32,377 nucleotides of DNA from an uncultured Methanosarcinales archaeon (GTDB lineage: Archaea > Nanobdellota > Nanobdellia > Woesearchaeales > GW2011-AR9), in contig CAZCXW010000009.1 in assembly GCA_964502785.1 (NCBI GenBank), positions 1 to 32,377 on the forward strand, in the 5' to 3' direction. Shown piece after piece: positions 2,830 through 32,377 of the stretch (position 1 is its first letter; the number at the start of each line of letters is the position of its first letter). Made by a program: the position numbers and the translations under genes. The notes beneath the pieces are model-generated. The model ran no database searches. It was not told the origin of the DNA and saw nothing but the letters and a program-made list of their open reading frames with translations.

Positions 2830-3540
2830 ATGAATTCAACTCGGCGAACGTTTCTACTGTCAGTGATTATGGCTCCCGTCACTCTGCCATTTATTGGCTG
2901 CGGTGAGCAGACTAAGATTGGAAGAGTTCCTTCTTTGCCCGATGGCGGAATTTTGTATTCAGATGTTCATATTGGCGCGGATGCCGGTGCATTTACCGAT
3001 GCGCGCGCTCCGGATGCAGAATCAGATGTTGCAGATGCTGGAATTGCCTGTCGTATAAAATTTGAATGGTACAATGATTTTGAAAGTCCCTTCTGCCGAC
3101 GCTTCTACGAAGACTCTCTTCCTTCGATTAAAACTGATTACGGTTCTCAAGTTGACGTCGTAATCCATCATTTTCCCCTTCCGGAAATTTTTCCGAATGC
3201 CTATTTTGCCGCCGTCGCTGCCGAATGCGCGCTTCGCCAAGGAAAGTTTTGGGAATATGCAGATCTCCTTTTTCAAAATCAAGGGAATTTAACCGATCGC
3301 AACCTACAGCAATTTGCATCCAACGTAGGCCTTGATGAGAGAATCTTCAATGAATGTTTTGATGCAGGTTCCAATGGAATTGCTCAAACGCAAGTTCAAA
3401 ATGATAAGAATAATGGTCAAGATCGTGCCGTTCGAGGTGTTCCTACGTTTTTCATCGGTCCACAAAATCTCCGTATTGATGGCGCTAATCCTTACGTCCA
3501 ATTCAAGTCCGTTATAGAAGAAGCATGCGGGCGGCAATAA
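2830..3540 (+). CDS. DsbA-like thioredoxin-fold protein with Tat-type signal and lipobox; active site SPFC
   Basis: N-terminus MNSTRRTFLLSV...LPFIGC combines a twin-arginine motif (S/T-R-R-x-F-L) with a lipobox-like Cys. The body matches the DsbA/Thioredoxin_4 pattern (FEWYNDFESPFCRRF..., QGKFWEY..LF, RGVPTFFIG cis-Pro loop). Confidence 0.75.
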   Translation: MNSTRRTFLLSVIMAPVTLPFIGCGEQTKIGRVPSLPDGGILYSDVHIGADAGAFTDARAPDAESDVADAGIACRIKFEWYNDFESPFCRRFYEDSLPSIKTDYGSQVDVVIHHFPLPEIFPNAYFAAVAAECALRQGKFWEYADLLFQNQGNLTDRNLQQFASNVGLDERIFNECFDAGSNGIAQTQVQNDKNNGQDRAVRGVPTFFIGPQNLRIDGANPYVQFKSVIEEACGRQ

Positions 3541-4801: not shown

Positions 4802-5476
4802 ATGACCAATAATGATTTAATTTCCCTCGTCGCTGAAAATAAACACTATCTCAAAGTTAGATCCCCTCGTGATCCACAAGTTCTCAATGCCATGCGTCGC
4901 GTCGATCGCGCTTTTTTTCTTCCACGCTCGCAGCAATCATATGCGTATGAAGATGAGCCGCTCAGCATCGGTTATCGTCAGCCCTGCGCTAAACCATCTT
5001 TGGTTGCGCTTATTACAGATCTTTTAGACCTAAAAAAGAGCATGAATGTCCTCGAAATTGGCACTGGCTGCGGATACCATGCGGCCATTGTCGCTGAAGT
5101 TATTGGCCGCAAAGGCCATATCACATCTGTTGAATACATTCCTCAATTAGCCCGCCGCGCCCGCTCTAATCTCGCCCAGCATTTCGGCGAAGCGTGGAGA
5201 GAAAAGGTGAGCGTCCATCGTGGTGACGGTTCGGTTGGTTATGTCAAAGACGCTCCTTACGATAGGATCTATTTAGCGGCAGGTGTTAACATAAAATCTT
5301 TCAAACCTGAGCTCATTGCTTCTCAGTTGAAGTCGGAAGGAATTCTGTTGTATCCCCAAGAAAAAGGGGGAATCATCAAAGAAAAATATTCCAAGGATGT
5401 GCGTATTTACTCTCAGCTCTGCTCCCCAGACAAAGATGGCTTTTGGTTTGTTCCACTTCGAGGATTTAATGTTTAA
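4802..5476 (+). CDS. pcm: Protein-L-isoaspartate O-methyltransferase family protein (divergent substrate motif)
   Basis: AMRRVDRAFFLP, AYEDEPLSIG and the SAM motif VLEIGTGCGYHAAIVAEVIG, at PIMT length. The usual GQT(I/V)S(Q/A)P motif reads RQPCAKP here. Confidence 0.85.
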   Translation: MTNNDLISLVAENKHYLKVRSPRDPQVLNAMRRVDRAFFLPRSQQSYAYEDEPLSIGYRQPCAKPSLVALITDLLDLKKSMNVLEIGTGCGYHAAIVAEVIGRKGHITSVEYIPQLARRARSNLAQHFGEAWREKVSVHRGDGSVGYVKDAPYDRIYLAAGVNIKSFKPELIASQLKSEGILLYPQEKGGIIKEKYSKDVRIYSQLCSPDKDGFWFVPLRGFNV

Positions 5477-5922
5477 TGTATCCTCTCATACCTTCCCACC
5501 AATTCCGCTTTAGCGAGTATGTGCCCTTGCATCGCTTTCTCCACTTCTACTTTAGTGGCTCCTTCTTTTAGATTTAACATAACATCTAATGCATATAATT
5601 TGAAGAAATACCTATGCTCTGTATCTGGCGGACATGGGCCTTTATACTTGAAATTTCCTCCCGTTCCTTTCCCATGAATTCCTTCAGGTTCTTTTCCTTC
5701 AGGAATTTCTTTTGTCTCCGGTGGAATATTAAAAACAATCCAATGATCCCATATCTTTCCTGCCGGTTTTACCGCATCCGGATCATCCATAATCAACACT
5801 ACACTTTTTGCTTCTTTTGGCACATCTGCTATTGTTAACGGCGGATTGCTATTTTCTCCATCACAGGTATATTTTGAATCGATTTTTTGATTCTGCTGAA
5901 ACGTCGAACTTGTTAGTTCCAT
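5473..5922 (-). CDS. PEBP/YbhB-YbcL family (Raf kinase inhibitor-like) protein
   Basis: YTCDGENSNPPL, LIMDDPDA, WDHWIVFNIP and GPCPPDTEHRYFFKLYALD. Start set at ATG 5922 (MELTSS...), which is preceded by GAGGTGA 6-7 nt upstream. The upstream 46 codons of the track ORF overlap a repeat element. The stop overlaps the pcm stop (convergent). Confidence 0.85.
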   Translation of the reverse strand: MELTSSTFQQNQKIDSKYTCDGENSNPPLTIADVPKEAKSVVLIMDDPDAVKPAGKIWDHWIVFNIPPETKEIPEGKEPEGIHGKGTGGNFKYKGPCPPDTEHRYFFKLYALDVMLNLKEGATKVEVEKAMQGHILAKAELVGRYERIH

Positions 5923-5974
5923 GCCTTTCACCTCATTATTTTGTTCAACTTTAGTACAGCTTATTAAAATCCTC

Positions 5975-6194
5975 GGAATTTTCCACCAGTCTATGACTGG
6001 TGGCTTCAACGTGGAAAATTCTGGGAGCCAAAAAGCTCTGGCTTTTGGATCCAAAAACAATGTTTTTGTGAGTCAGAAAACCGCCCCGAGCGAAGCGAGC
6101 ATGCAAAGAAATCCGCTGATTTCTTGCACAAGAAATGCGCGACATTTCTTTGTGCCATCCGGTCTCTGACCGGTGGTGGGCGGTTTTCTTTGAC
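5975..6194 (-). repeat. Mosaic intergenic repeat, copy C (long form)
   Basis: Read on the minus strand it starts GTCAAAGAAAACCGCCCAC (6194-6176). It contains the CCGGTC-aga-GACCGG hairpin and ends with the hairpin CCACCAGT(5983-5990)-ctatg-ACTGGTGG(5996-6003). The termini are shared with copies at 12240, 21622, 22167 and 31095. Confidence 0.8.
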
Positions 6195-6337
6195 AAATCA
6201 CAATAACAAGCATTATTAATGCAGGTTTCATTTGATATTATCCAGTGATGAACATATTTAAAGATTCTTATTTTTCAGGTTAATCTTTTTAAAGAAAAGA
6301 AACAATTTCAGGAAAATAACTTTTGGAGGAAGATAAC

Positions 6338-7126
6338 ATGGCAGAACTGCAGTTTGAAGGATATTCTCCCTTCGACAGAGGAAGAATTTATACAAAAGAT
6401 GGTGAATCATTCAGTAAAATCCCTCTTCGAGAAATTCTTATGGTTGAAACTTTTACGGAACCTACGAAAGACGGCGTAATTGATTATCTGGTTAGTGAAG
6501 CATCTAAAACATCAGTTTTATCTTTGCCTTCTAGTATGGAGCAGGATGTAAAGACGTTAAGAGATCTCATTCGTGTACTGCCAACTCAAATCCTGACTCA
6601 TCTTAAAACAAGAGATTCTAATTGTTTGACTTTTGTCGGACAAAATACTCCTGCGAGAAAGATTGAACAAGGAGAAAACGCTAGACGCTATCTGCATATT
6701 CAATATGGTGCCATTCCCCTTGACTTCATTAGCGCGCAGCCAGCAGCATCCGTTGATGCAGATTGGTACGAAGCAATACTCCCTCGATTAAGTCCTTCAC
6801 CAGTAGGTGTTACCATGACCATGCAGTGGGGTATCACAGAACACCCTCCTCAGCAGGAGGAAACTCAGCTTCAAGTCAACATTCTCCAATTTGCTAAAGT
6901 AACCGAAACAGTAAGTATTGCCTATGCTGGAGTACGTGACCTATTCCCAGACTTTTCTTCAGTAAAAGACGCTACGGAAGATCATCTGAAAAGTGCTTCA
7001 TTGCCAGCCGTGAAAGCATTGTATCAAAGGGTTGCTCAAGCAATAGCTCAAGAAAAAGCTCGTGAAAAAGAAAGTCGAGAAATAAGAAGAATCCTTCTTG
7101 ATCAAGATCCAACGCACCGCCGATGA
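6338..7126 (+). CDS. Hypothetical protein, paralog 1 of a tandem pair (unknown family)
   Basis: Long ORF. ATG 6338 is preceded by GGAGG (6325-6329) inside TTGGAGGAAGATAA, the same RBS context as the S-layer-like gene; the track start at 6323 is a TTG inside that RBS. Shares blocks with the ORF at 7486-8319 (TFTEPTKDGVIDYLVSEAS, NTPAR...GE.ARY...YG.(I/V)PL, DWYEAIL, ASLPAVKAL). Confidence 0.7.
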   Translation: MAELQFEGYSPFDRGRIYTKDGESFSKIPLREILMVETFTEPTKDGVIDYLVSEASKTSVLSLPSSMEQDVKTLRDLIRVLPTQILTHLKTRDSNCLTFVGQNTPARKIEQGENARRYLHIQYGAIPLDFISAQPAASVDADWYEAILPRLSPSPVGVTMTMQWGITEHPPQQEETQLQVNILQFAKVTETVSIAYAGVRDLFPDFSSVKDATEDHLKSASLPAVKALYQRVAQAIAQEKAREKESREIRRILLDQDPTHRR

Positions 7127-7348
7127 GATTTAATATTTTTGTTTCTTCTCTCATTTTTGAATAAAGAGAATTTTGCAAAATTGATTTCCTGCTCTAAATT
7201 TGTAGAATTTTACGCATAAATTGCAAAGTTATCTGTCAGAACACAAAAGGGAAAATGATCCCTTTTTGTGCAAGAATTTTCTGCTTCAAAGAAGAGAAGT
7301 TCACCACCAATCAAAGAAAATGGTAGAAAATTCTGTGCATTTTGAGTT

Positions 7349-7384
7349 GTCAAAAAACAGGGTTTTTTACTCCCAGAATTTTCC
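7349..7384 (+). repeat. Partial copy (G) of mosaic intergenic repeat modules
   Basis: GTCAAAAAACAGGG...CTCCCAGAATTTTCC. The CTCCCAGAATTTTCC module is also present (reverse complement) in copy C at about 6010-6024. AAAGAGAATTTTGCAAAA at about 7163-7182 recurs as AAAGAGAACTTTGCAAAA at about 21598-21615. Confidence 0.6.
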
Positions 7385-7485
7385 GATATGTAAACTTAAT
7401 AAAAAATTCTGAGGATTTCAAAATTCTCTAAATAATAACATTTCTCTAAAGAAGATTTATAATTATCAAAAACGTCCCTCCTAAA

Positions 7486-8319
7486 ATGACTGGTGATGCA
7501 CGTCAATTATTCTTAGGATACCAGGCTATTGAAGAGGGAAAAGTACACTTGGGTATGGATATAATAGGGGGAATGATTACCCAAAAAATACTTTTTCCTT
7601 ACACCTTCACAGAGTCGACAGAAGAAGGTGTTATAAAGTATCTCAGTGAAGAAGCCTCTGGGGCATTGGCCAATCTCGCCTTGAATTTGCCCGAGACCTT
7701 GCGTCCCCAAAGAGAAAAAAGTGAATCCATTGAAAGTCGGATTCGCGCCCTGCCTTTTCAAATGCTGACCAAAATCGCGTTGCGGGATAATGGTTATGCG
7801 ACATTCATAAAACACAATACTCCCGCCAGAGTTCTGCCGACAGGAGAAACCCCGGCTCGGTATGTGGAAGTTTCCTACGGCTTGGTGCCGTTAGCTTTAG
7901 TTGAAGCTTCTCGGGAAATGGGGGTTGACATCAATTTTGAATGGTACGGACAAATCCTTCGCCAGTATAAAAGCGACTTCATTGGACCAAAATTAACTCT
8001 CTGCTGGAAATTAAATGCTCTGGGAAATCTCCCGCCTATTAATGAACTTATTTTTAATGCCTATAACGAAGGATATAACACTTTGTTAAATGTAGCCTCT
8101 GTCGTTTATCAAGGCTTAACGAGCTGCTGGCCAAATCCCGCCTTCAGCGATATTTCTCACGAAAAAATAAAAGAAGCTGCCTCTCCCGCGGTTGATGCCC
8201 TGCAACGATTAATTGATAGTCAGAAATTAAAAAAAGGATCTTCGGTGAAGAAAGTGCGAATTCATACAGCATCGAAAAAGGCTGGAAAAAACGATGACAA
8301 GAAAGCAAAAGTAAATTAA
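7486..8319 (+). CDS. Hypothetical protein, paralog 2 of the tandem pair; lysine-rich C-terminal tail
   Basis: 277-aa ORF with collinear similarity to 6338-7126 (TFTESTEEGVIKYLSEEAS, NTPARVLPTGETPARYVEVSYGLVPL, EWYGQIL, ASPAVDAL). Tail is KKGSSVKKVRIHTASKKAGKNDDKKAKVN. Confidence 0.7.
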   Translation: MTGDARQLFLGYQAIEEGKVHLGMDIIGGMITQKILFPYTFTESTEEGVIKYLSEEASGALANLALNLPETLRPQREKSESIESRIRALPFQMLTKIALRDNGYATFIKHNTPARVLPTGETPARYVEVSYGLVPLALVEASREMGVDINFEWYGQILRQYKSDFIGPKLTLCWKLNALGNLPPINELIFNAYNEGYNTLLNVASVVYQGLTSCWPNPAFSDISHEKIKEAASPAVDALQRLIDSQKLKKGSSVKKVRIHTASKKAGKNDDKKAKVN

Positions 8320-12239: not shown

Positions 12240-12279
12240 GTCAAAGAAAGCAGACCACTGGTGGAAAGAGCAGATTCTA
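12240..12279 (+). repeat. Mosaic intergenic repeat, copy D (shortest form)
   Basis: GTCAAAGAAAGCAGACCACTGGTGGAAAGAGCAGATTCTA. It has the same 5' and 3' termini as copies B and A with almost all internal sequence missing. Confidence 0.75.
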
Positions 12280-18112: not shown

Positions 18113-18278
18113 GTCAAAAACCACCAGTCAGACGCACAGTGAAACATAGATTTCACTGGCGCACAAGAAGCAGCGGCTTCTTTGTGGACAGGTGGTATGA
18201 CGTTCATAACGTCATGCAGAGTTTTTGAGCACCCCAGTATTCCACTGGTGTTCCACCAGTGGAATATCTGTGGTTTTA
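18113..18278 (+). repeat. Mosaic intergenic repeat, copy F (three perfect hairpins)
   Basis: Starts GTCAAAAACCACCAGTCAGAC. Hairpins are CAGTGAAA-cataga-TTTCACTG (18137-18158), ATGACGTT-cat-AACGTCAT (18197-18215) and TATTCCACTGGTG-ttc-CACCAGTGGAATA (18238-18266). It ends with the reverse complement of AAAACCACAGATATTCCACTGGT, a module shared with 22311-22333. Confidence 0.8.
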
Positions 18279-21547: not shown

Positions 21548-21621
21548 TCCATTTTAAAGATGAAAAGATTATATAATTATATCGAAAAGCCATTTTCAAA
21601 AGAGAACTTTGCAAAAGAATT

Positions 21622-21648
21622 GACTAGCGGTGGTCTGTTTTCTTTGAC
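21622..21648 (-). repeat. Mosaic intergenic repeat, copy E (5'-module only)
   Basis: Minus strand reads GTCAAAGAAAACAGACCACCGCTAGTC, beginning 4 nt after the stop of the gene at 21653-22018. Confidence 0.65.
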
Positions 21649-21652
21649 TTTC

Positions 21653-22018
21653 TCATGACTTCTTTTCCTTCACATCATCGTCCAAACTCTGCATTGCTCT
21701 TCTCAATTGGAATTCAGCCAGACTCACCATTCTTTCACGCACTATGGGGCTTGCATCTCTATATGCATACGTCATATTCTTGTTGGCAAATTTCAATGCA
21801 TCTTTTCGCGGCAACCCGTAACTTTTTATCAGCCGATTTACAAACTGAACAGGATCATTATATCTTGATAGGTCTTTCACAATTTCATATACTAAGATCT
21901 CATTTAGTTTAGCATCCGCTGTGCCTAACAATCTTTCCAGAAATCCAGGCCGTCTGCCGATAATCTCGCGGGGAAAATATTGTTGTACCAATTCCGGATA
22001 TATTTTTCGTTCGAGCAT
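21653..22018 (-). CDS. Hypothetical protein (121 aa)
   Basis: ORF trimmed to ATG 22018 (MLERKIYPELVQQ...), because the track's longer version (to 22105) is read through the tRNA-Thr gene. No recognisable motif. Confidence 0.5.
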   Translation of the reverse strand: MLERKIYPELVQQYFPREIIGRRPGFLERLLGTADAKLNEILVYEIVKDLSRYNDPVQFVNRLIKSYGLPRKDALKFANKNMTYAYRDASPIVRERMVSLAEFQLRRAMQSLDDDVKEKKS

Positions 22019-22025
22019 AATAAAA

Positions 22026-22111
22026 AGCCCCTGCGGGGATTTGAACCCCGGATCTGCGCTTCTCTCCTTATGGATACGAGAGCGCCGCTCTAGCGACTGA
22101 GCCACAGGGGC
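22026..22111 (-). tRNA. tRNA-Thr(CGU) with a 13-nt intron at 37/38
   Basis: Reverse complement: GCCCCTG TG GCTC AGTCGCTA GAGC G GCGCT CTCGTA [TCCATAAGGAGAG] A AGCGC AGATC CGGGG TTCAAAT CCCCG CAGGGGC T. All four stems are perfect. Anticodon at 22078-22076, intron at 22074-22062. TATA-like catatttaaaaaaag lies about 28 nt upstream. Confidence 0.8.
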
Positions 22112-22166: not shown

Positions 22167-22333
22167 GTCAAAGAAAACCGCCCACGACCATTCTATTGAA
22201 TGGTCGTATGCTCCCTTCATTCTAACGATTTTCTGACCCTGCTTTTTCCTAAGCTGGCACACTCGTCTCCAGACCACCAGTAAATACACTGGTGGAAAAA
22301 GCAGATTCTAAAACCACAGATATTCCACTAGTC
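22167..22333 (+). repeat. Mosaic intergenic repeat, copy B (reference long form)
   Basis: GTCAAAGAAAACCGCCCAC, then hairpin ACGACCATTC-tatt-GAATGGTCGT (22184-22207), then about 65 nt, then hairpin CCACCAGT-aaatac-ACTGGTGG (22274-22295), then AAAAAGCAGATTCTA, then AAAACCACAGATATTCCACTAGT. Confidence 0.85.
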
Positions 22334-24566: not shown

Positions 24567-24983
24567 TTAGAGTGGGTATTCAACTGCCAAAAATTCACTA
24601 GCTTTCATAATTGTCACTTTTGCAAATTCTTTCAGTTTCAGTAAATGCGGATCTCCACTAATCAAATATTGAACATTTCCTACTATTGCTGTTTCCAGTA
24701 TTGCATTATTATAAGGATCATCTACAATTACTTTTACTTTACCTGTAATCTCAACCATCGTTGCAATTTCCAGAATTATAGAGATAAACATTGCTTTCTG
24801 CTCTCCAGTAAAATTGAATTTTGGATAGTCCAGTACTCTTTTTAACTCTTCAATCTGATTTGGAGAACTTACTAACTCCAATTCTCCATACAAACACTTC
24901 TCAAAGATCACTCTTGGTTTTCCCAACCAGCCAAGGGCAGAAATGAGAATATTCGTATCTAAGAGGACCTTCGTCTTGCCCAT
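24567..24983 (-). CDS. vapC: PIN-domain toxin (VapC-like)
   Basis: KVLLDTNILISAL N-terminus, acidic residues at PIN positions (VDDPYNN, SGDPHL), 138 aa, and overlap with the upstream antitoxin gene. Confidence 0.8.
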   Translation of the reverse strand: MGKTKVLLDTNILISALGWLGKPRVIFEKCLYGELELVSSPNQIEELKRVLDYPKFNFTGEQKAMFISIILEIATMVEITGKVKVIVDDPYNNAILETAIVGNVQYLISGDPHLLKLKEFAKVTIMKASEFLAVEYPL

Positions 24984-25225
24984 GCGACAGCCTCATCAAC
25001 ATCTTCAGGTGCAACTCTCTGTTTCTTGAATTGCTTCTCAATTTCTTTCGATAATTTCTGAAATTCAGCTTTTACATCTGGTATTTCTACTTTCTTAAAT
25101 AATATCCCACCTTTTACAGGAAACGGAACAAATCTATCCCCTGGACTAAATCCTTCGTCTATCCTTATATCTTGAGGAACTACCAACTGTCCTTTCGGAC
25201 TCATTTTTACGAGATCGGTGTCCAT
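24959..25225 (-). CDS. vapB: AbrB/SpoVT-family antitoxin (VapB-like)
   Basis: MSPKGQLVVPQDIRIDEGFSPGDRF swapped-hairpin motif; 88 aa; GGAGG about 9 nt upstream of the ATG; overlaps the PIN gene by 25 nt. Confidence 0.8.
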   Translation of the reverse strand: MDTDLVKMSPKGQLVVPQDIRIDEGFSPGDRFVPFPVKGGILFKKVEIPDVKAEFQKLSKEIEKQFKKQRVAPEDVDEAVAWARRRSS

Positions 25226-25390: not shown

Positions 25391-25690
25391 ATGGACAAAA
25401 AGAGGCTGGATAGCGTTACAAAGATTTCTCAGGCTAATCTAGACCGCATTTCACGCTTAAAAGAATCAGGTTACGAGCCGAATGATTACGTCATTAATCT
25501 CGCATTAGACCTTCTCGAACAGGTGGGAGGGGGGGAAGGACTTGCGACGAAGCCGAATCTGACCACCAAAATTTCTTCTAAGACATTATTGCGGATTGCA
25601 AAGCTAAAACCAAGCGGTTACGAGACAAATGATTACATTATCGCCAAAGCGCTAAGTTTGCTGGAGAAGAAAAAAAGCATTAAAAAATGA
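25391..25690 (+). CDS. Tandem (fused) ribbon-helix-helix protein, putative DNA-binding regulator
   Basis: Two internal repeats, VTKISQANLDRISRLKESGYEPNDYVINLALDLLEQ and LTTKISSKTLLRIAKLKPSGYETNDYIIAKALSLLEKK. Each has the beta-strand / helix / G-x-(S/T/E) / helix layout of CopG/Arc-type RHH modules. They are joined by VGGGEGLATKPN. Confidence 0.55.
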   Translation: MDKKRLDSVTKISQANLDRISRLKESGYEPNDYVINLALDLLEQVGGGEGLATKPNLTTKISSKTLLRIAKLKPSGYETNDYIIAKALSLLEKKKSIKK

Positions 25691-28600
25691 AACAAAAAAA
25701 TAGAAAAAAGAGAAGAATGTTGAGAAAAAAGAAAGAACATTCTTTCCTTCCGCATCTTACTCCAAAGCTCTGGCTCTTTATGCTGCTCCTCGTCCTCCTC
25801 GCTCTGGGCAGTCTTTCATACTTTGTAGGTCCTCATACTATGAGTTCGATCACGGCCAGCGCTATCGGCATTTTGCCATTTGAAGAGAGCATTATGAATG
25901 AAACTGGACCTTCAGAGAGCAACAAAACGGAGAGTCAATCCGCTAATGTATCAGCGCTCTTGACTGAAAATGGCGCGCTTCCATCTGAAATTTCTGCGCC
26001 TCAGGAAAGAAATCTGCCTCAGGAAAGAAATCTCATTGTCAGTCAGATAACACCTCAGGCCGGAAATCATAATCGAGTCAGAGGGCCAGGAATGAATCGT
26101 CCTTCCGTGGTCAATAGAACAAACCTGCCCGAAGGAAGGGATCAGCACAATGGGTTTCGAAAGTATACCAAAAATAATGGCTTTGTTGTTGTGACTGAAC
26201 CAAAGGTAAGTTGTGAATGGGAGAGCCCAACCCTTGCTGTAAAGAGATGTTCTATTGTCTTTGAAGCCGAGAACACCAATGGCCAAAAGCCTGTCATTTC
26301 TGCTCCCACTTTGAATTTTAGCCACCAAAATGCTAACATCACTGACGTTACGACGTTATTCTCCAATGAATCTGTTGAGGATACTATTTGGGAGGTAATT
26401 TCCAACGTGACGGGAGATTATATTGAGGGTGAAGCAATTGATAGATTTACTAATTTTGTTCCTATTCCCGCTGCTATTGACACGGGAATTCCCTTTGCCA
26501 TTCAATACAATTTAACCATGCCCGTCTATCAAAACGATACCTTCAGCCTGCAACTAATCGGAGTCGTCAATGCTACTATTGACCCAGATATCTCTGCCTG
26601 CGCTACGCTTACAAATACAACAGATGAGTATGTGTTAACTTCAGAGGTAAGTTCCACCACAGATTGTTTTACCATTAGCAGTTCTACTGGTGTGGAGTTA
26701 GATTGTCGTGGAAATCTCGTTTATTTTGGAACTGATGGAAAAGGAAGCGCCAGGGGCGTTTTACTTAATGCTGCAAATGATACAAAAATTAAAAATTGTA
26801 TTTTTATACAGGGAGCAGGAAATAATACCAATGGCGATCGGGCAGTTTTAACAACCTCGAACAGTAGTGTAAATCTAACTATTCTTAATAATACTATAAT
26901 TCTCAACGGGACCAACGCAAAAGGAATAAGATTCTCAAATGTCCTAAATAGTGAAATAACATTAAACCGGATTAATGCTTCCATTGGTAATGCCCCGGCG
27001 GGAATAGAACTCATTTCTTCTGATAATAATACAATTATCCAAAATAATACTATAACTATCACTAGTAATGCTACACAGGGGATTTTTATCAATGGCGGGT
27101 CAGGAAATAATACGATTCGTTACAATTTTATTAACATAACTGTCTATAATTATGGATCCCCTATTTTCTTTCTAGGAACAAAGTTCAACTATATTTACAA
27201 TAATACTTTACACTATCAATGTACGACATGTAAAACTGATCAAGGCGATCAAGATGTTATTATTTTTGGATTAGGTTTAGCTGTAAGTGATAACCAATTT
27301 GTTAACAATATTTATTCCATTATTGGAAATGGTTCTGAAATGATTTTTAGAGATCGAAGGCCGCTGGAAGCAGATACACTCATTTTTAATAACTCACAGG
27401 GAGAAATAAGATTTGCTTACAATTCATTTCTCCTCAATTTGAATATCACTACTTTTTCCCGAACATTGCAGTTAGGCACTAATTTACATATCAGCAACAA
27501 CAGCATTGCCATTAACGCTTCCGATTTTAACACTTCCAAAAGTCCTTATTCGAACAGCAGTCTTAATCTCACATTGTCAGGATTGGGCTTTAATCAGAAT
27601 GTGACAAGAATTTACTATCTCGCAAACTTCAGTAATGATGGGGATTTCATTATTGCCAACGGTATAGATTGTATTGCCGCGGGGTATTGCGGCAATTTAG
27701 CTTATGACAACACAACTAAAATTGCTACATTCAATACTTCCTACTGGGGAAGTTTTGCGGTTAACGGAACGTATATGATAGATACTTTTTTTCCTCAAGC
27801 AGCATTCCTCAATCCTGCGAATAACAGCAACTTTAGTTCTGGTAATCAATCATTCAATGTCAGCATTCTTGAAGATTGGTCTTTAGGAGTAGTTCTCTTC
27901 AGTATTTCCAATAGCACTGGAACGCCATTTAATATCACATCTTTGACCAATGTCAGCGGCAACTGGAACACGATGATTAACATGAGTTCGTTAGTGGAAG
28001 GAACAAATATTGTAACCGTCTTCGCCAATGATACGAGTAATAATCTCAATAATACTGTTACTCTTTACTTTAATGTTGACTACACACCACCTAATGCTTC
28101 GTTTGTGAATACTATTGCCAACAACACAAATTTCAGCCTCGCCACGGGCTCATTAATTCTCAATGCTTCCATCATCGATGGTTTTGCAGGTGTATTGTCA
28201 GTGAATCTGAGTTTTGAAAACAACAGCGCGCAAGGCGGCACGGCATTCAACCGCACAGCTCTTAATTTCAGCGGGATGTGGAACGTCACCTTTACCGATG
28301 TATCTAACTTAACGGATGGCCTGCACCGTGTCAAAATTATGGCCAATGACAAACTTAACAACACAAATCGCACGTCTGAATTCTGGTTTGGCGTGGATAA
28401 GACCCCTCCTAATGTCAGCAATCTCAATATGATGGGCATGCTTACCCCTTCCGCTTTAGTTAATAATTCTAATTTCAGCGAGAATGTTGTAGCGCAATAT
28501 GGAGCAATCGCTTTTAATGTCACGGTCATCGATGGTTATCGGGGAGTCTTAAATGTAAATTTCAGTTTCGACAATGCTTCCGGAAATGCCGGGGGAACAG

Positions 28601-30444
28601 CATTCAATCGCACTGCCACGAACTTCAGCGGCAATTGGAATGTTTCATTTGAAAATATTTCTTTGAATTTCACCGACGGCCTTCATAAAATAATAATCAT
28701 GGCCAACGATGGATTGAATAATACGAATCGAACTACAGAATTATGGTTTAGAATTGACAGAGAAGTTCCGAATGCCAGTTTTGTCAACACAGTGACAGCT
28801 GGCGCAAATTTCACAGAAGCGACGGGAAGAGTTGTGTTCAATGCGAGCGTCATCGATGGAAGCATTGGCGTATTGGAAGTTAACATGAGCTTCGACAATG
28901 CGAGCGGCGTGGGCGGAACTGCATTCAATCGTACTGCAGCTAATTTCAGCGGCAACTGGAATGTGAGCCTTGAGAATGTCTCTGCAAACTTAACGGATGG
29001 TCTGCATGTTGTCCGCATCATGGCAAATGATAGATTCAATCACAGCAATCGTACAACAACATTTACATTCAGGGTTGACAGAGCGCCACCAAATGTTAGT
29101 GTTGGCGTCTTTGGAATAACAAATTCGAGTTATGGCGATTCCACTAATTTCCTCACCTTTGTGAATAACAGCAACTTCACGAGCGGAGCTCGTGTCGTGT
29201 TCAATGCGACTGTTATCGATGGCGTGACGGCTATCTCAACCGTTAACCTCAGTTTCTCTAACTTAACGGGAGACGGAGGAACTGCATTCAATCGTACTGC
29301 GGCTAACTTCAGCGGCAACTGGAATGTGACATTTGAGAACATTGCCCAGAACTTTACCGACGGCAGACATAGGCTGTTTATCATGGCGAATGACTGGGTG
29401 AATCACAGTAATAGAACCACTGATTTTTGGTTTTCGGTTGATACCACTGCTCCCAATGTTACTATTCTTACTTCTAATCTTACAAGATACAGTATAAATA
29501 ACGGCAGCACCGTCAATGCTACCATTTTCGAAACAAATTATGTTGTTGCTGTTATCTATCAATTCAGCAATGGCACTAACCCATTTAATCTCACGGCCGT
29601 TAACAACAGTGGAAATTGGCATTTAACATTTAACGCTTCTATCATTACGGAAGGAACTCACAATATTACGATCTTTGCCAATGACAGCGCGGGGAACTTG
29701 AATCGTGGGCAATTGGCGACTTTTATTATCGACCGCACCGCGCCGACAATTTCCCTCAGCCGTTCTGATGCATCTACTTCTACGCAATTGATAATTAACA
29801 TCGCCACCACGTCTGATTCTTTGACGTGCATTTCCGATCGTGGAAATGTTATAGGGACAGGCGCCGCGCAAACCCTCACCGCCAGTAGTTTAAGCCCTGA
29901 CACTATCTATTCTTTCACCGTATCTTGCACGGATGATGTTTCCAATACGAATAGTGTAACCCAAGAATTCCGCACTGGAGCTGCAGGTGGCAGTGGAGCT
30001 TCGGGAGGAATTAGCGGCGGTGGCGGAGGAGGTGGTGGCGGACGAAGCGCATCTCCTGCTGCGGAAAGCGAGCCTTCGCCGCAGCCAAGCGATGCTGTCA
30101 CTGGCGCGGTAGTTTCTTCAGAGGAGGAAGCTCCGATTAGTGAACGCGGCGGAGAAGCCGCCGGTGAAACAGGCGGCAAAAGTTGGATCCGACGGCCTTT
30201 TGTCCAAGTAACTGCTAATCGTGTCAGTGCCTTTGCGAAGAACATTATTTCTCTCACCACCGAGAGAGCCAGCGCGCTGCTTAAAATGGCCATCACCAAA
30301 TCAAAATGGTTTGCGACGGTTAATTACGGCTGGATAGCTCTCGCCTTTGTTTTAATTGCGGTCGTTCCCAGAATTTGGGTTTATGTGTATAAGAAGAGCG
30401 CAAAGAAACAGAAAAAAATAAAATCTATGAAAAGAAAACTATGA
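25687..30444 (+). CDS. Giant (1585 aa) membrane-anchored surface protein: N-terminal signal-anchor, parallel beta-helix (PbH1/NosD-like) region, about 7 Ig-like modules, Gly/Ser/Pro linker, C-terminal TM
   Basis: Basic N-tail plus TM (LWLFMLLLVLLALGSL). PbH1-like repeats at about 26750-27400 (NNTIILNGTNAKGIRF, NNTIIQNNTITITSNATQGIFI, NNTIRYNFINIT). Repeated modules are bounded by (V/I)D-x-x-(P/A)PN(A/V)(S/T). GGISGGGGGGGGGRS linker. C-terminal TM WIALAFVLIAVVP followed by a K-rich tail. ATGA overlaps at both ends. Confidence 0.85.
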   Translation: MKQKNRKKRRMLRKKKEHSFLPHLTPKLWLFMLLLVLLALGSLSYFVGPHTMSSITASAIGILPFEESIMNETGPSESNKTESQSANVSALLTENGALPSEISAPQERNLPQERNLIVSQITPQAGNHNRVRGPGMNRPSVVNRTNLPEGRDQHNGFRKYTKNNGFVVVTEPKVSCEWESPTLAVKRCSIVFEAENTNGQKPVISAPTLNFSHQNANITDVTTLFSNESVEDTIWEVISNVTGDYIEGEAIDRFTNFVPIPAAIDTGIPFAIQYNLTMPVYQNDTFSLQLIGVVNATIDPDISACATLTNTTDEYVLTSEVSSTTDCFTISSSTGVELDCRGNLVYFGTDGKGSARGVLLNAANDTKIKNCIFIQGAGNNTNGDRAVLTTSNSSVNLTILNNTIILNGTNAKGIRFSNVLNSEITLNRINASIGNAPAGIELISSDNNTIIQNNTITITSNATQGIFINGGSGNNTIRYNFINITVYNYGSPIFFLGTKFNYIYNNTLHYQCTTCKTDQGDQDVIIFGLGLAVSDNQFVNNIYSIIGNGSEMIFRDRRPLEADTLIFNNSQGEIRFAYNSFLLNLNITTFSRTLQLGTNLHISNNSIAINASDFNTSKSPYSNSSLNLTLSGLGFNQNVTRIYYLANFSNDGDFIIANGIDCIAAGYCGNLAYDNTTKIATFNTSYWGSFAVNGTYMIDTFFPQAAFLNPANNSNFSSGNQSFNVSILEDWSLGVVLFSISNSTGTPFNITSLTNVSGNWNTMINMSSLVEGTNIVTVFANDTSNNLNNTVTLYFNVDYTPPNASFVNTIANNTNFSLATGSLILNASIIDGFAGVLSVNLSFENNSAQGGTAFNRTALNFSGMWNVTFTDVSNLTDGLHRVKIMANDKLNNTNRTSEFWFGVDKTPPNVSNLNMMGMLTPSALVNNSNFSENVVAQYGAIAFNVTVIDGYRGVLNVNFSFDNASGNAGGTAFNRTATNFSGNWNVSFENISLNFTDGLHKIIIMANDGLNNTNRTTELWFRIDREVPNASFVNTVTAGANFTEATGRVVFNASVIDGSIGVLEVNMSFDNASGVGGTAFNRTAANFSGNWNVSLENVSANLTDGLHVVRIMANDRFNHSNRTTTFTFRVDRAPPNVSVGVFGITNSSYGDSTNFLTFVNNSNFTSGARVVFNATVIDGVTAISTVNLSFSNLTGDGGTAFNRTAANFSGNWNVTFENIAQNFTDGRHRLFIMANDWVNHSNRTTDFWFSVDTTAPNVTILTSNLTRYSINNGSTVNATIFETNYVVAVIYQFSNGTNPFNLTAVNNSGNWHLTFNASIITEGTHNITIFANDSAGNLNRGQLATFIIDRTAPTISLSRSDASTSTQLIINIATTSDSLTCISDRGNVIGTGAAQTLTASSLSPDTIYSFTVSCTDDVSNTNSVTQEFRTGAAGGSGASGGISGGGGGGGGGRSASPAAESEPSPQPSDAVTGAVVSSEEEAPISERGGEAAGETGGKSWIRRPFVQVTANRVSAFAKNIISLTTERASALLKMAITKSKWFATVNYGWIALAFVLIAVVPRIWVYVYKKSAKKQKKIKSMKRKL
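27775..29970 (+). repeat. Intragenic tandem array of about 7 Ig-like coding modules (about 240-365 bp each)
   Basis: Module boundaries lie near 27775, 28078, 28396, 28756, 29076, 29441 and 29731. The recurring core is GGTAFNRTA-NFSGNWNV-(S/T)-EN...TDGLH...IMAND..N.(T/S)NRT..F.F.VD. Segments 28915-28966 and 29278-29329 differ at only 2 of 52 nt. Confidence 0.85.
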
Positions 30445-30818
30445 GAAAAAAACAAAAGAGGACGCTCCGGAGGATGTTCCTGCAAAAGAAGTATGTTCAT
30501 TCCTATTTAATAGTATTATTCCTTCTCTTCCTTTTCTTGCTCAGCATTGCATTTATTGTTCCTCAAGAGCTTTCCAATTCCATCACCGGAGCGGTGATAA
30601 GTATATTGCCCATTGACGAGCCTCAAAATGAAACTGCCCATTTCATTAATCCTTCTCCAGAAATAACCATTCCCGAAAATCCCGCAACTAAAGTCCAGAA
30701 TCCTTCTCCCGCAGCTTCTGTACGTAATCCATCACCAGAGCAACCGATCAATTTGGAAAAGAACTTGAAAAACATAAAACAAACCGCTGAAGAAAGAGAC
30801 TACGAAGAGTTAGACTAA
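30441..30818 (+). CDS. Small membrane-anchored Pro-rich protein; N-terminal module paralogous to that of the giant protein
   Basis: MRKKQKRTLRRMF... followed by a TM, then SNSITGAVISILPIDEPQNET (compare MSSITASAIGILPFEESIMNET in the giant protein), then NPSP repeats. ATGA overlap with the giant gene's stop. Confidence 0.6.
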   Translation: MRKKQKRTLRRMFLQKKYVHSYLIVLFLLFLFLLSIAFIVPQELSNSITGAVISILPIDEPQNETAHFINPSPEITIPENPATKVQNPSPAASVRNPSPEQPINLEKNLKNIKQTAEERDYEELD

Positions 30819-31094: not shown

Positions 31095-31149
31095 TAGAAT
31101 CTGCTTTTTCCACCAGTGTATTCACTGGTCGTGGGCGGTTTTCTTTGAC
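31095..31149 (-). repeat. Mosaic intergenic repeat, copy A (internally deleted form of copy B)
   Basis: Minus strand reads GTCAAAGAAAACCGCCCACGACCAGTGAATACACTGGTGGAAAAAGCAGATTCTA. This equals copy B minus about 90 nt lying between two GACCA pentamers. It starts right after the T-rich tract following the cupredoxin-like gene's stop. Confidence 0.85.
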
Positions 31150-31171
31150 TTTAGAAAAGAAAAATAAAAAA

Positions 31172-31633
31172 TTATTGCACGGTAATCGTGCCTTGCACTA
31201 CTCTATCTCTGTCATCAGGGCGTTCATCGCGCGTGTCTTCCATTTCGTACTCGCTGGCGTAATAATACACGCCTGGCTGCAAAAATGTATACTGCGCTTT
31301 TGCTCCCGGTGGAAGGAATATCTCCGGACCATTTTCTTGAAACATTATTGTATGGCTGATATAGAACTGTTTTCCTTCTGCATTTTGCACACTGTCTCTG
31401 TTCACCCACATCACTGTGTCTCCGACATTAATTATCAAATCTGTAGGCATGAATTGCAGGTTTTCTACAACTACTTCACTCACCACTCCAGTTGCTTTTA
31501 CAACCAAAGCTTCCTCCTCTTCCTCTGCCACAGACAGCTTTTGTTGCGGTTGTTTTATTTGCTGTTGTTCTACGCAGCTGCTCACCAAGAGCGCGCCCAA
31601 CAGTAAAATACTTAGGACTAGTATTTTTTTCAT
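31172..31633 (-). CDS. Cupredoxin-fold lipoprotein-like protein lacking an intact type-1 Cu site
   Basis: Signal peptide with lipobox MKKILVLSILLLGALLVSSC. Plastocyanin-like VVENLQFMPTDLIINVGDTVMWVNRDS and SHTIMF. The usual C-x(n)-H-x(n)-M loop is replaced by GVYYYASEYEMEDTRDERPDD. Confidence 0.6.
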   Translation of the reverse strand: MKKILVLSILLLGALLVSSCVEQQQIKQPQQKLSVAEEEEEALVVKATGVVSEVVVENLQFMPTDLIINVGDTVMWVNRDSVQNAEGKQFYISHTIMFQENGPEIFLPPGAKAQYTFLQPGVYYYASEYEMEDTRDERPDDRDRVVQGTITVQ

Positions 31634-31662: not shown

Positions 31663-32377
31663 CTACTCAGAAGTCCTCCTTTTTAACAATAATTTCCATT
31701 CTCCTTTATAATACTTGTGGAAAGCATAGAGGGCTGCGAGGACCATCAGCAGGCTGAACCATTGGCCAACAGTAAAGGAAAAATAGGTTTTTTCATCGCG
31801 ATAGAAGTCCAGCAAAAACCTTCCCAAACCCTCTAAAAAGATAAAATTCCAAAAAACAAATCCTGATTTAAACTCTTTCTTGTAACCCAGCCAAAGCAGC
31901 CAAACAAATAACAGGAATCTTTTTCCTGCTTCGTACAACTGATACGGATGCCGGCAGAGATCGTCTCCTCCAGTATTTTTAAAATTAACGCACCACAAAC
32001 CATTCCATGGTTTTCCCCAGAGTTCTCCATTCACAAAATTAGCAATCCTTCCTAACGCCAGAGCCAAAACAGCGGGAATCGTCAGAATATCCGCCACGCG
32101 CCAAAAATCGATTTTTTTCTTTTTACAGAACCATAGTGCTCCTAAGACGCTTCCTGCAAATCCGCCATGGAAACTCATTCCCCCCTGCCAAACTTTAAAG
32201 ATATTAAGAACATTTGAGAAATAATAAAGTGGTTCATAAAATAATTCAAAGAGACGCGCTCCTATAATCAGCCCCATCATTACATAAAAGATAAGATCCC
32301 AGATATCTTCTTTGCTGAGATTAAGTTGTGAACGCTGTTTTTGCAGGAAATAAATTCCTAACAAAAAACCTAACACA
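31663..32377 (-). CDS. lgt: Prolipoprotein diacylglyceryl transferase (Lgt) homologue; the N-terminus runs off the window
   Basis: VWQGGMSFHGGFAG, LGRIANFVNGELWG and RHPYQLYEAG are collinear with the E. coli Lgt signature blocks (VWDGGMSFHGG, GRLGNFINGELWG, RHPSQLYE). Multi-TM protein. Confidence 0.9.
   Translation of the reverse strand, partial: VLGFLLGIYFLQKQRSQLNLSKEDIWDLIFYVMMGLIIGARLFELFYEPLYYFSNVLNIFKVWQGGMSFHGGFAGSVLGALWFCKKKKIDFWRVADILTIPAVLALALGRIANFVNGELWGKPWNGLWCVNFKNTGGDDLCRHPYQLYEAGKRFLLFVWLLWLGYKKEFKSGFVFWNFIFLEGLGRFLLDFYRDEKTYFSFTVGQWFSLLMVLAALYAFHKYYKGEWKLLLKRRTSE

Follow-up and report, generated by a model that had tools for sequence, protein, structure and literature searches.

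We analysed a stretch of 32,377 nucleotides, contig CAZCXW010000009.1 of assembly GCA_964502785.1 (below, the window), and a family of hairpin-rich repeats that occupy its intergenic spacers. The window is Woesearchaeal, with a GC content of 39.9%, and carries the genes for aIF5B, Trm1, RtcA and ABCE1/RLI. Further genes encode PCMT, a PEBP-family protein, EF-1beta, GTP cyclohydrolase II and a geranylgeranyl-reductase-like protein. These genes show 53-73% identity and shared synteny with contigs of Woesearchaeota/Nanoarchaeia metagenome-assembled genomes (MAGs), and judging from its gene content the host is an archaeon. Several open reading frames (ORFs) remain without annotation after Pfam and NCBIfam scans. 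The window sequence was detected in groundwater metagenome runs. Compared loci from other MAGs and metagenomes are denoted by L-numbers (L003, L022, L054 and so on).

About eight copies or remnants of the repeat were found in these 32 kb. The 19-nt 5' module GTCAAAGAAAACMGMCCAC, searched with at most three mismatches, has five matches in 32.4 kb, at 6176-6194(-), 12240-12258(+), 21630-21648(-), 22167-22185(+) and 31131-31149(-), against 0.01 expected. The 23-nt 3' module ACTGGTGGAAAAAGCAGATTCTA has three, at 12257-12279(+), 22288-22310(+) and 31095-31117(-), against 0 expected. An earlier, sequence-only reading of this DNA had listed seven copies. All seven are real, and the modules that they share are far above chance, but some of the limits given for them had to be corrected, as described below.

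In aligned copies, the intact unit is 129-150 nt long and sharp at both ends. It consists of two long fold-back domains, each with a CCACCAGT..ACTGGTGG palindrome, and a tail of 5-6 nt, ATTNTA. The closing stem of domain A is GTCA[AA]GAAAACCGACC / GGTCGGTTTTCTGAC, and inside it are the palindrome CCACCAGTC-AATA-GACTGGTGG and the conserved stretch GCATGCTCGCTTCGCTCGG. A single base separates this domain from domain B, which has the closing stem (C)ATGCTTTTTCC / GGAAAAAGCAT and contains a variable bulge of 22-26 nt and the palindrome CCACCAGTG-AAACA-CACTGGTGG. A 129-nt subfamily in the MAG JACPNA01 has no such bulge. The first palindrome lies 17-19 nt from one end of the unit, and 15-17 nt separate the second from the opposite end. 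Within a lineage the palindromes resemble each other, yet their changes are not always matched (CCGCTGG.. vs CCACCAG.. in L036). The dominant architecture is A5-A3-B5-B3, and domains A and B were never seen as independent families. There are no terminal inverted repeats, in agreement with the sequence-only reading: all that the 5' tip GTCAAAGAAAAC.. has in common with the reverse-complemented 3' tip TAAAATATGC.. is the internal CCACCAGT.

The fold of the unit is conserved. RNAalifold yields 41 pairs, ten of them with compensatory changes. In the MAFFT alignment 97% of the cells pair, and double changes are seen in 10 pairs, compared with 3.7 +/- 1.2 in shuffles and 0-3 when the partners are slid. 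Compensatory changes are abundant in the aligned copies. Single copies have minimum free energy (MFE) z-scores of -7.9, -6.4 and -10.8 relative to shuffles. In the distant metagenome members L082 and L090 the closing stems are wholly different yet complementary, and GTCAAA..TTTTGAC, both palindromes and GCATGYTCGC are retained. Mismatches in the stems comprise 32 G:T and 28 A:C, with no strand asymmetry. In some copies (L023, L039) a hairpin occurs with its loop reverse-complemented, and such a flip is a DNA-level event. The only Rfam match at the gathering score is a tRNA, and a permissive search up to E 10 gave nothing meaningful.

The focal copy of the window, at 22167-22310 (+), is full-length (144 nt; covariance model R1, 128 bits, E 1.5e-29). 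Its domain A (22167-22237) has the 5' strand GTCAAAGAAAACCGCCC, the palindrome at 22186-22205 and a decayed 3' strand ..CGATTTTCTGAC. Domain B (22239-22304) runs from CTGCTTTTTCC through the palindrome at 22274-22295 to GGAAAAAGCAG, and the tail at 22305-22310 is ATTCTA. The copy is decaying, as mutations have disrupted the closing stem of domain A and its 3' strand is lost. The sequence-only reading had extended it to 22333. Positions 22309-22332 (-) belong instead to an inverted 3'-end fragment of a diverged subfamily (TAAAACCACAGATATTCCACTAGT), which is 96% complementary to 18255-18278 and sits tail-to-tail with the focal copy, the terminal TA being common to both.

The copy at 5966-6194 (-), previously taken to begin at 5975, is full-length with extra hairpin modules (229 nt; MFE -86.7 kcal/mol, z -6.4). 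It consists of domain A at about 6194-6072, two extra hairpins, domain B at about 6021-5976 and the tail GAGGATTTTA. The closing stem of its domain B has covaried (GGAATTTTCC/GGAAAATTCC), and the covariance model matches 6052-6194 (41.9 bits) and 5968-6051 (22.1 bits). The partial copy noticed at 7349-7384 does exist, but the spacer 7127-7485 holds two degenerate remnants resembling domain B. One is at 7242-7341 (+; 20.9 bits, E 0.0017). The other, GTCAAAAAACAGGG.. CTCCCAGAATTTTCC .. AAAATTCTGAGGATTTCA at 7349-7420 (+; 9.1 bits, weak), is a relative of the 3' portion of the copy at 5966-6194 (6013-6034 vs 7363-7384, 91%). The full-length member at 18113-18278 (+) belongs to a diverged subfamily (DNA fold -49.4 kcal/mol, z -10.8; covariance model 14.6 bits, E 0.058). 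It has the two-domain layout: GTCAAAAAC..GTTTTTGAG closes domain A, the long hairpin CCACAG..CTGTGG is domain B, and the tail is TTTTA. At 21617-21648 (-) there is a 5' fragment only (GTCAAAGAAAACAGACCACCGCTAGTCAATTC), starting 4 nt past the stop codon of ORF 21653-22021. The minimal terminal-only form at 12240-12279 (+; 40 nt) retains the 5' strand of domain A, CCACTGGTGG, the 3' strand of domain B and the tail. The core-deleted form at 31095-31149 (-; 55 nt) has the 5' strand of domain A, one palindrome, the 3' strand of domain B and the tail ATTCTA.

The mosaic look of the copies has three sources: deletion between the palindromes, insertion of hairpin modules into loops or junctions, and mutational decay. 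Forms of 55/56 nt (31095-31149 in the window; L024, L034) correspond to a full unit from which all sequence between the two CCACCAGT repeats has been removed, and forms of 40 nt (12240-12279 in the window; L026, L040) additionally lack the hairpin. The two window copies are therefore deletion derivatives, and not, as had been supposed, pairs of modules with 0 nt between them. The deletion forms arose repeatedly, since they carry lineage-specific variants. Longer copies, of 182-409 nt, contain extra hairpin modules; the window copy at 5966-6194 is one of them. Apart from two 37-nt insertions, one placed exactly in each palindrome loop, two loci of one MAG, L054 and L022, have about 98% identity (L054 7634-7889 vs L022 5258-5439). 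The inserted double-hairpin module, ..TCACT..GTGAGTTGCT..GCAAC, also occurs in L004, L031, L039, L056 and L072. It behaves like a tiny loop-targeting mobile unit, and may be regarded as analogous to SMR-A in haloarchaeal PATEs.

We scanned one genome per species with the 5' module and found many further copies outside the window. Given these copies and the compensatory changes, the outcomes named as refuting the sequence-only reading did not arise. Among the matches listed, the exact module occurs in at least 64 archaeal tiles, of which 36 are in JACPNA01 and the others in 15 further MAGs, either Woesearchaeota/Nanoarchaeia or labelled Methanosarcinales; the 16 bacterial matches, single and without the rest of the element, are due to chance. 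Covariance model R1 has 88 matches in 460 kb. JACPNA01 alone contains about 50 near-identical copies (96-99% identity), and k-mers of the element reach 16-75x the single-copy depth in the source metagenomes. The family is mobile: the permease-RtcA-EF1beta-PEBP block is syntenic in the window, L028, L038 and L070 (53-68% amino acid identity), with the element in different spacers. Only three matches were found in an unbiased set of 57 ABCE1-anchored loci (620 kb), where L090 and L135 hold one identical copy with identical flanks; therefore the family is patchy. Viral contigs gave one chance match, and plasmid and phage collections none. In the JGI metagenomes the closest relative of the window ABCE1 has 71% identity (79% for one partial sequence), too distant for alignable spacers. 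A full-text literature search found no description of this repeat family. Taken together, the repeats are very probably a non-autonomous, that is, gene-less, mobile element family of Woesearchaeal genomes.

Three MAGs labelled "uncultured Methanosarcinales archaeon", CAYHXT01, CAZNUS01 and CAYRMP01 (L038, L022, L035), carry the same repeat family and are syntenic with the window at 34-68% amino acid identity; going by these sequences, their label or binning looks wrong. The window genome (about 4x) and JACPNA01 co-occur in groundwater samples X1 and X4, and have different subfamilies of the repeat. In X5 and X6, further runs of the same study, JACPNA01 has a depth of about 60-90x.

The copies are intergenic and have no gene-linked orientation. 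With crude gene calls based on the longest ORFs, 18 lie between convergent genes and 17 between divergent ones, and 14 are co-oriented and 16 anti-oriented with tandem genes; the gene downstream has the orientation of the copy in 32 cases and the opposite one in 39. The sequence-only reading had pointed to three copies downstream of same-strand stop codons. These copies do start 4-54 nt after the stop, but a larger set of 76 copies from many genomes shows no such bias.

No direct repeat of the flanks was observed at 49 distinct insertion sites, so that the absence of target duplications, proposed from the window alone, holds for the family. The base preceding GTCAAAG is A or T in 49/49 copies, and the base at position -2 in 46/49. 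In five copies the final bases of the tail form the TAA stop codon of a convergent gene (...TAA|AATATGC... on the gene strand), and in no case does a displaced stop codon stand at the start of the opposite flank. The alignment of the L039 ABCE1 protein with its window counterpart reaches the final residue of the latter. As five neighbouring genes have their native stop codon in the tail, it seems to be a pre-existing target. The tail's middle base is variable among otherwise near-identical JACPNA01 copies. In an all-against-all BLAST comparison of flanks a single imperfect pair was found, L082 and L117, with an extra gene in L082. The relative without the element, L117, has TTCAA where L082 has the tail; this is weak, as the sites otherwise differ. 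On the strand complementary to GTCAAAG the target appears to be 5'-TWNAA^WW-3', as far as can be read from these flanks. For IS608-style covariation of guide and cleavage site, the bases 5' of the palindromes were compared with the tail by eye, and no consistent pattern was seen.

In JACPNA01, where the tiles are in contig orientation, 32 copies lie on 11 multi-copy contigs, and no copy is discordant with the others of its contig (chance about 2^-21). When the skew was split into components, the coding component was +0.13 and the replication-like GC-skew component +0.14 on the element strand; the latter is positive on about 17 contigs and negative on 7. One possibility is that insertion is coupled to replication. 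As a separate observation, JACPNA01 loci (e.g. L008, L014, L032, L078) have an unusually strong non-coding replication-like GC skew, +/-0.15 to 0.3 per 8-kb tile. The + strand of the window is uniformly C-rich (component -0.13) across all 32 kb.

We propose the following mechanism. An HUH/Y1 single-strand transposase of the IS200/IS605 TnpA or RAYT type would be supplied in trans and would recognise two like palindromes on one strand. The element would be inserted without duplication beside a short AT-rich target, 5'-T-W-N-A-A^W-W-3' on the complement of GTCAAAG. Later deletions, insertions of hairpin modules and decay would then yield the mosaic copies. Insertion of IS200/IS605 elements takes place 3' to a target of 4-5 nt, without duplication and oriented as the lagging-strand template (PMC5027513). 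In 256 Nanobdellota proteomes K07491, the REP-associated tyrosine transposase, is reported as the only transposase KEGG Orthology entry with strict matches (bioRxiv 10.64898/2026.05.13.725050). The Y1 enzyme itself is inferred, and that such an enzyme moves the family is a tentative, though quite possible, conclusion. The combined statement, that this is a gene-less mobile family of the PATE/REP-like kind moved by a Y1/HUH transposase, seems to us on balance probable. The sequence-only reading had suggested REP/PATE-type elements derived from IS200/IS605. The PATE-like traits were indeed found, but the link to IS200/IS605 is unproven, as the searches brought up neither a Y1 nor a TnpB gene bearing these ends; four descriptive features fit this class, and membership in it is not established.

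Several observations weigh against a Y1 transposase. The enzyme was not seen: in agreement with the sequence-only reading, none of the 30-odd non-nested window ORFs scanned (66 ORFs of at least 80 aa were listed) matches a transposase family in Pfam, nor do the eight Pfam-negative ORFs match one in NCBIfam, and thus no Y1/TnpB-like ORF was found by scans that left out short ORFs nested in larger genes and the 1585-aa ORF 25687-30444. Crude scans for Y1, RAYT and TnpB motifs in about 1.1 Mb of loci (not whole genomes) gave nothing in archaeal loci, and the sole RAYT-like motif match is in the bacterial chance locus L025. No gene-bearing element with these ends was seen near the copies examined, the search for ends more than 450 nt apart being too noisy. 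A paralogue screen of ORFs near copies returned only a class II aminoacyl-tRNA synthetase family, and the ORFs in copy-dense loci are housekeeping genes.

Other points of the same kind concern the element and its sites. Both tips are base-paired in long stems, unlike the ends of IS608. Seven of about 45 JACPNA01 copies stop 2-6 nt early at the tail end, without the canonical tail, which would not be expected from precise Y1 cleavage. Empty sites were not observed, and the Logan contigs of groundwater runs compared with the window (about 4x) and L008 show no joint at the element boundary. The equal frequency of G:T and A:C mismatches gives no sign of selection on one folded strand. There is also a polarity conflict with the bacterial paradigm: the target motif makes the "top" strand opposite to GTCAAAG, yet in JACPNA01 the GTCAAAG strand is the G-rich one (17 vs 7 contigs). 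Copy orientation in the window is mixed (3 vs 3) despite the uniform skew, and one of the two CAYHXT contigs is discordant in orientation.

JACPNA01 also contains a canonical multi-copy insertion sequence (IS) with a 16-bp terminal repeat GGCTAATATGAAACCC (L062 2368-2506; L070, L003 and L063 1-140; L084 9646-9661). Three JACPNA01 contigs start within this IS, and one has its end there. One copy of the repeat is interrupted by the IS (the end of L062 and L070 141-195), with about 9-10 bp, GTGTTAGTG(G), duplicated, and the ends of the IS are unrelated to the repeat family.

The unit could also be a composite fold-back miniature inverted-repeat transposable element (MITE), moved by a DDE transposase that binds double-stranded repeats, with the covariation reflecting co-evolution of repeat and protein. 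Each domain would then be a small MITE, GTCA..GAAAACCGACC / GGTCGGTTTTC..TGAC and ATGCTTTTTCC / GGAAAAAGCAT. Each is a nearly perfect long palindrome, in the 129-nt JACPNA01 subfamily even without the bulge; the symmetry of the stem mismatches and the flipping of hairpin loops agree with this explanation, and JACPNA01 does have an active canonical IS with 16-bp terminal repeats. However, that IS is the only one seen, and has unrelated ends and a 9-10 bp duplication, whereas the repeat unit has no inverted repeats at its tips, no duplication at 49 sites and no domain that occurs as an independent family. Uniform orientation within contigs is not predicted by double-strand cut-and-paste either, and we consider a DDE-driven origin unlikely. 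A classical MITE is rejected, as there are neither tip inverted repeats nor a target duplication. Lack of duplication and of tip inverted repeats, together with subterminal hairpins, would also be expected of other non-duplicating systems, namely rolling-circle elements (IS91/Helitron-like HUH), the IS110 type with its bridge RNA or serine recombinases of the IS607 type. The end that varies in seven of about 45 copies, the other being constant, resembles one-ended rolling-circle events, and the two-domain fold is superficially like two-loop guide RNAs. Genes of these systems were seen neither among the scanned ORFs of the window nor beside the copies examined, though. The identical core dinucleotides that IS110 and IS607 require on both sides were not seen, the IS91 targets (CTTG/GTTC) are absent from the flanks, and the element, always gene-less, is far smaller than any known end bearing a bridge RNA. 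Systems of this kind are very unlikely.

The sequence-only reading had offered a family of structured small RNAs, or 3'-untranslated-region (3'-UTR) or terminator structures, as the alternative. More generally, small RNAs or RNA elements acting in cis (3'-UTR stabilisers, terminators, promoters) may have been kept for their function and spread secondarily. The fold is highly stable, its conservation is accompanied by compensatory changes, and many copies adjoin stop codons. Runs of T4-T5 on both strands of each full copy (GCTTTTTCC, GGTTTTCTTTGAC) could stop archaeal RNA polymerase, and the 3' end GGAAAAAGCATATTTTA resembles a TFB recognition element (BRE)/TATA pair, going by known archaeal signals. 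What speaks for DNA, and makes the RNA explanation highly improbable, is the lack of any preference for gene orientation or position (18 convergent, 17 divergent, 30 tandem), the lack of asymmetry between G:U and A:C, the tolerance of loop inversions and the absence of an Rfam match; in addition, the family is patchy among close relatives, and decayed or truncated copies are frequent in the window. Degenerate window copies (7242-7420, 21617-21648, the decayed stem in 22167-22310) could suggest chance similarity or decaying local duplications without mobility, but five modules against 0.01 expected, and dozens of near-identical copies over many contigs and genomes, leave this with a negligible probability. 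Two other candidates were rejected. The repeats are not integron attC sites, being dispersed between housekeeping genes (aIF5B, Trm1, RtcA, ABCE1, aminoacyl-tRNA synthetase) in both orientations in the window, with no integrase; nor, on sequence and context, are they hammerheads, the one CUGAUGA being in L054 only.

Beyond transposition by a Y1 enzyme of known kind, the family might be more than IS605 debris. It might represent a distinct hairpin-ended single-strand transposon system of DPANN archaea, with paired tips, replication-strand-specific insertion at TWNAA^WW (often a stop codon), a polarity opposite to IS608, mobilisation by a single-copy RAYT-like Y1 gene or by another enzyme, and a 37-nt parasite of its loops. 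We regard this as improbable. If true, it would be the first REPIN/RAYT-like symbiosis described in archaea, occupying about 1% of a roughly 1-Mb genome.

The repeats of this family can produce spurious ORFs or extensions in automatic annotation. Mechanically called ORFs cross copies or start in them at 5473-6060 (-), 5921-6169 (+), 5951-6196 (-) and 31145-31606 (+). In the TTG-start ORF 5473-6060 the PEBP domain begins at residue 59; translation probably starts at the ATG from which MELTSST is read. In L028, L038 and L070 the PEBP and EF-1beta genes are direct neighbours; in the window two tandem paralogous ORFs lie between them, 6323-7126 (+) and 7486-8319 (+), with 29% identity, no match in Pfam, NCBIfam or PDB, and repeat copies around them. 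A profile search with these ORFs produced 123 representative clusters of about 270-290 aa, of which ten sampled had no Pfam domain. They were considered as a candidate transposase and rejected, as homologues are absent from all other element-bearing loci.

Some other features of the window were observed. A tRNA gene overlooked by ARAGORN lies at 22026-22111 (-; 86 nt, Rfam 56.8 bits); it resembles tRNA-Thr(CGU), with position 37 followed by an intron of about 13 nt. ORF 21653-22105 begins inside this tRNA, and its true start is probably the ATG near 22021. The PIN_3-domain ORF 24567-24983 overlaps a small upstream ORF, 24959-25225 (-), and the two resemble a VapBC-type toxin-antitoxin pair. 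The 1585-aa ORF 25687-30444 (+) contains internal repeats of 321-363 nt (28590-29458 and around), has a relative in L035 and probably encodes a large surface protein; the small ORF 30441-30818 that follows has a similar basic N-terminus. Prolipoprotein diacylglyceryl transferase (Lgt, PF01790) and a DsbA-like thioredoxin are encoded at 31663-32376 (-) and 2830-3540 (+), typically bacterial envelope functions, here in a DPANN archaeon.

DPANN genomes are among the smallest and most streamlined cellular genomes, yet one Woesearchaeal genome has about 50 near-identical copies of the element. A 2024 census of MITEs placed a Woesearchaea genome among those with the highest archaeal densities, 105 MITEs per Mb, and gave no anatomy (PMC11602168). 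A defined family with a covariance model allows masking of repeats that break assemblies and create spurious ORFs (e.g. 5921-6169, and the TTG start of 5473-6060), and the family offers markers for strain tracking. It is also a test case for replication-coupled Y1 single-strand transposition in archaea with Orc1/Cdc6 origins.

No new principle is involved, as haloarchaeal PATEs already show most of these traits. PATEs of Haloquadratum walsbyi and others derive from IS200/IS605 elements of the IS1341 type (PMC3119063). Like the Woesearchaeal family, they are archaeal and gene-less, measure from tens of base pairs to about 200 bp, have neither terminal inverted repeats nor target duplications, and possess two near-terminal palindromes of like sequence that are hit by small secondary hairpin repeats; deletion of the core through repeats leaves a terminal-only form, 52 bp in PATEs and 55/56 nt here, and homogeneous recent sets exist beside heterogeneous old ones (PMC3119063). 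In contrast to PATEs, the Woesearchaeal family has its tips inside the long closing stems of two fold-back domains, no IS605-type parent, TnpA or TnpB with the same ends was found for it, and its putative target motif (TWNAA) is degenerate. Its host, a DPANN archaeon, has a genome of about 1 Mb, and the inserted module is 37 nt, compared with about 110 bp for SMR-A.

With REP, BIME and REPIN-RAYT systems the family shares the intergenic location and the mosaic of palindromic hairpin units (PMC3333891; PMC6006769), and the presumed single-strand processing by a Y1 HUH enzyme that one gene or a few would supply. It differs in its fixed two-domain unit of 129-150 nt, where REPs of 20-40 nt form variable doublets, and in the lack of a conserved GTAG-like tetranucleotide; no RAYT gene flanked by the repeats was seen in the loci examined, and copies number tens rather than hundreds. 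Pneumococcal BOX elements have the structure boxA-boxB(n)-boxC with ends complementary to each other, and Neisseria Correia elements have inverted repeats at the tips and a TA duplication. Both resemble the Woesearchaeal family in being small, highly structured and intergenic, in the modular build with a variable number of internal hairpins and in possible side effects on transcription, but neither is known to have its uniform orientation per contig or its target-like flank. Thus the closest known kind is PATE, followed by REP/BIME/REPIN-RAYT, and the BOX-type modular repeats are analogues only.

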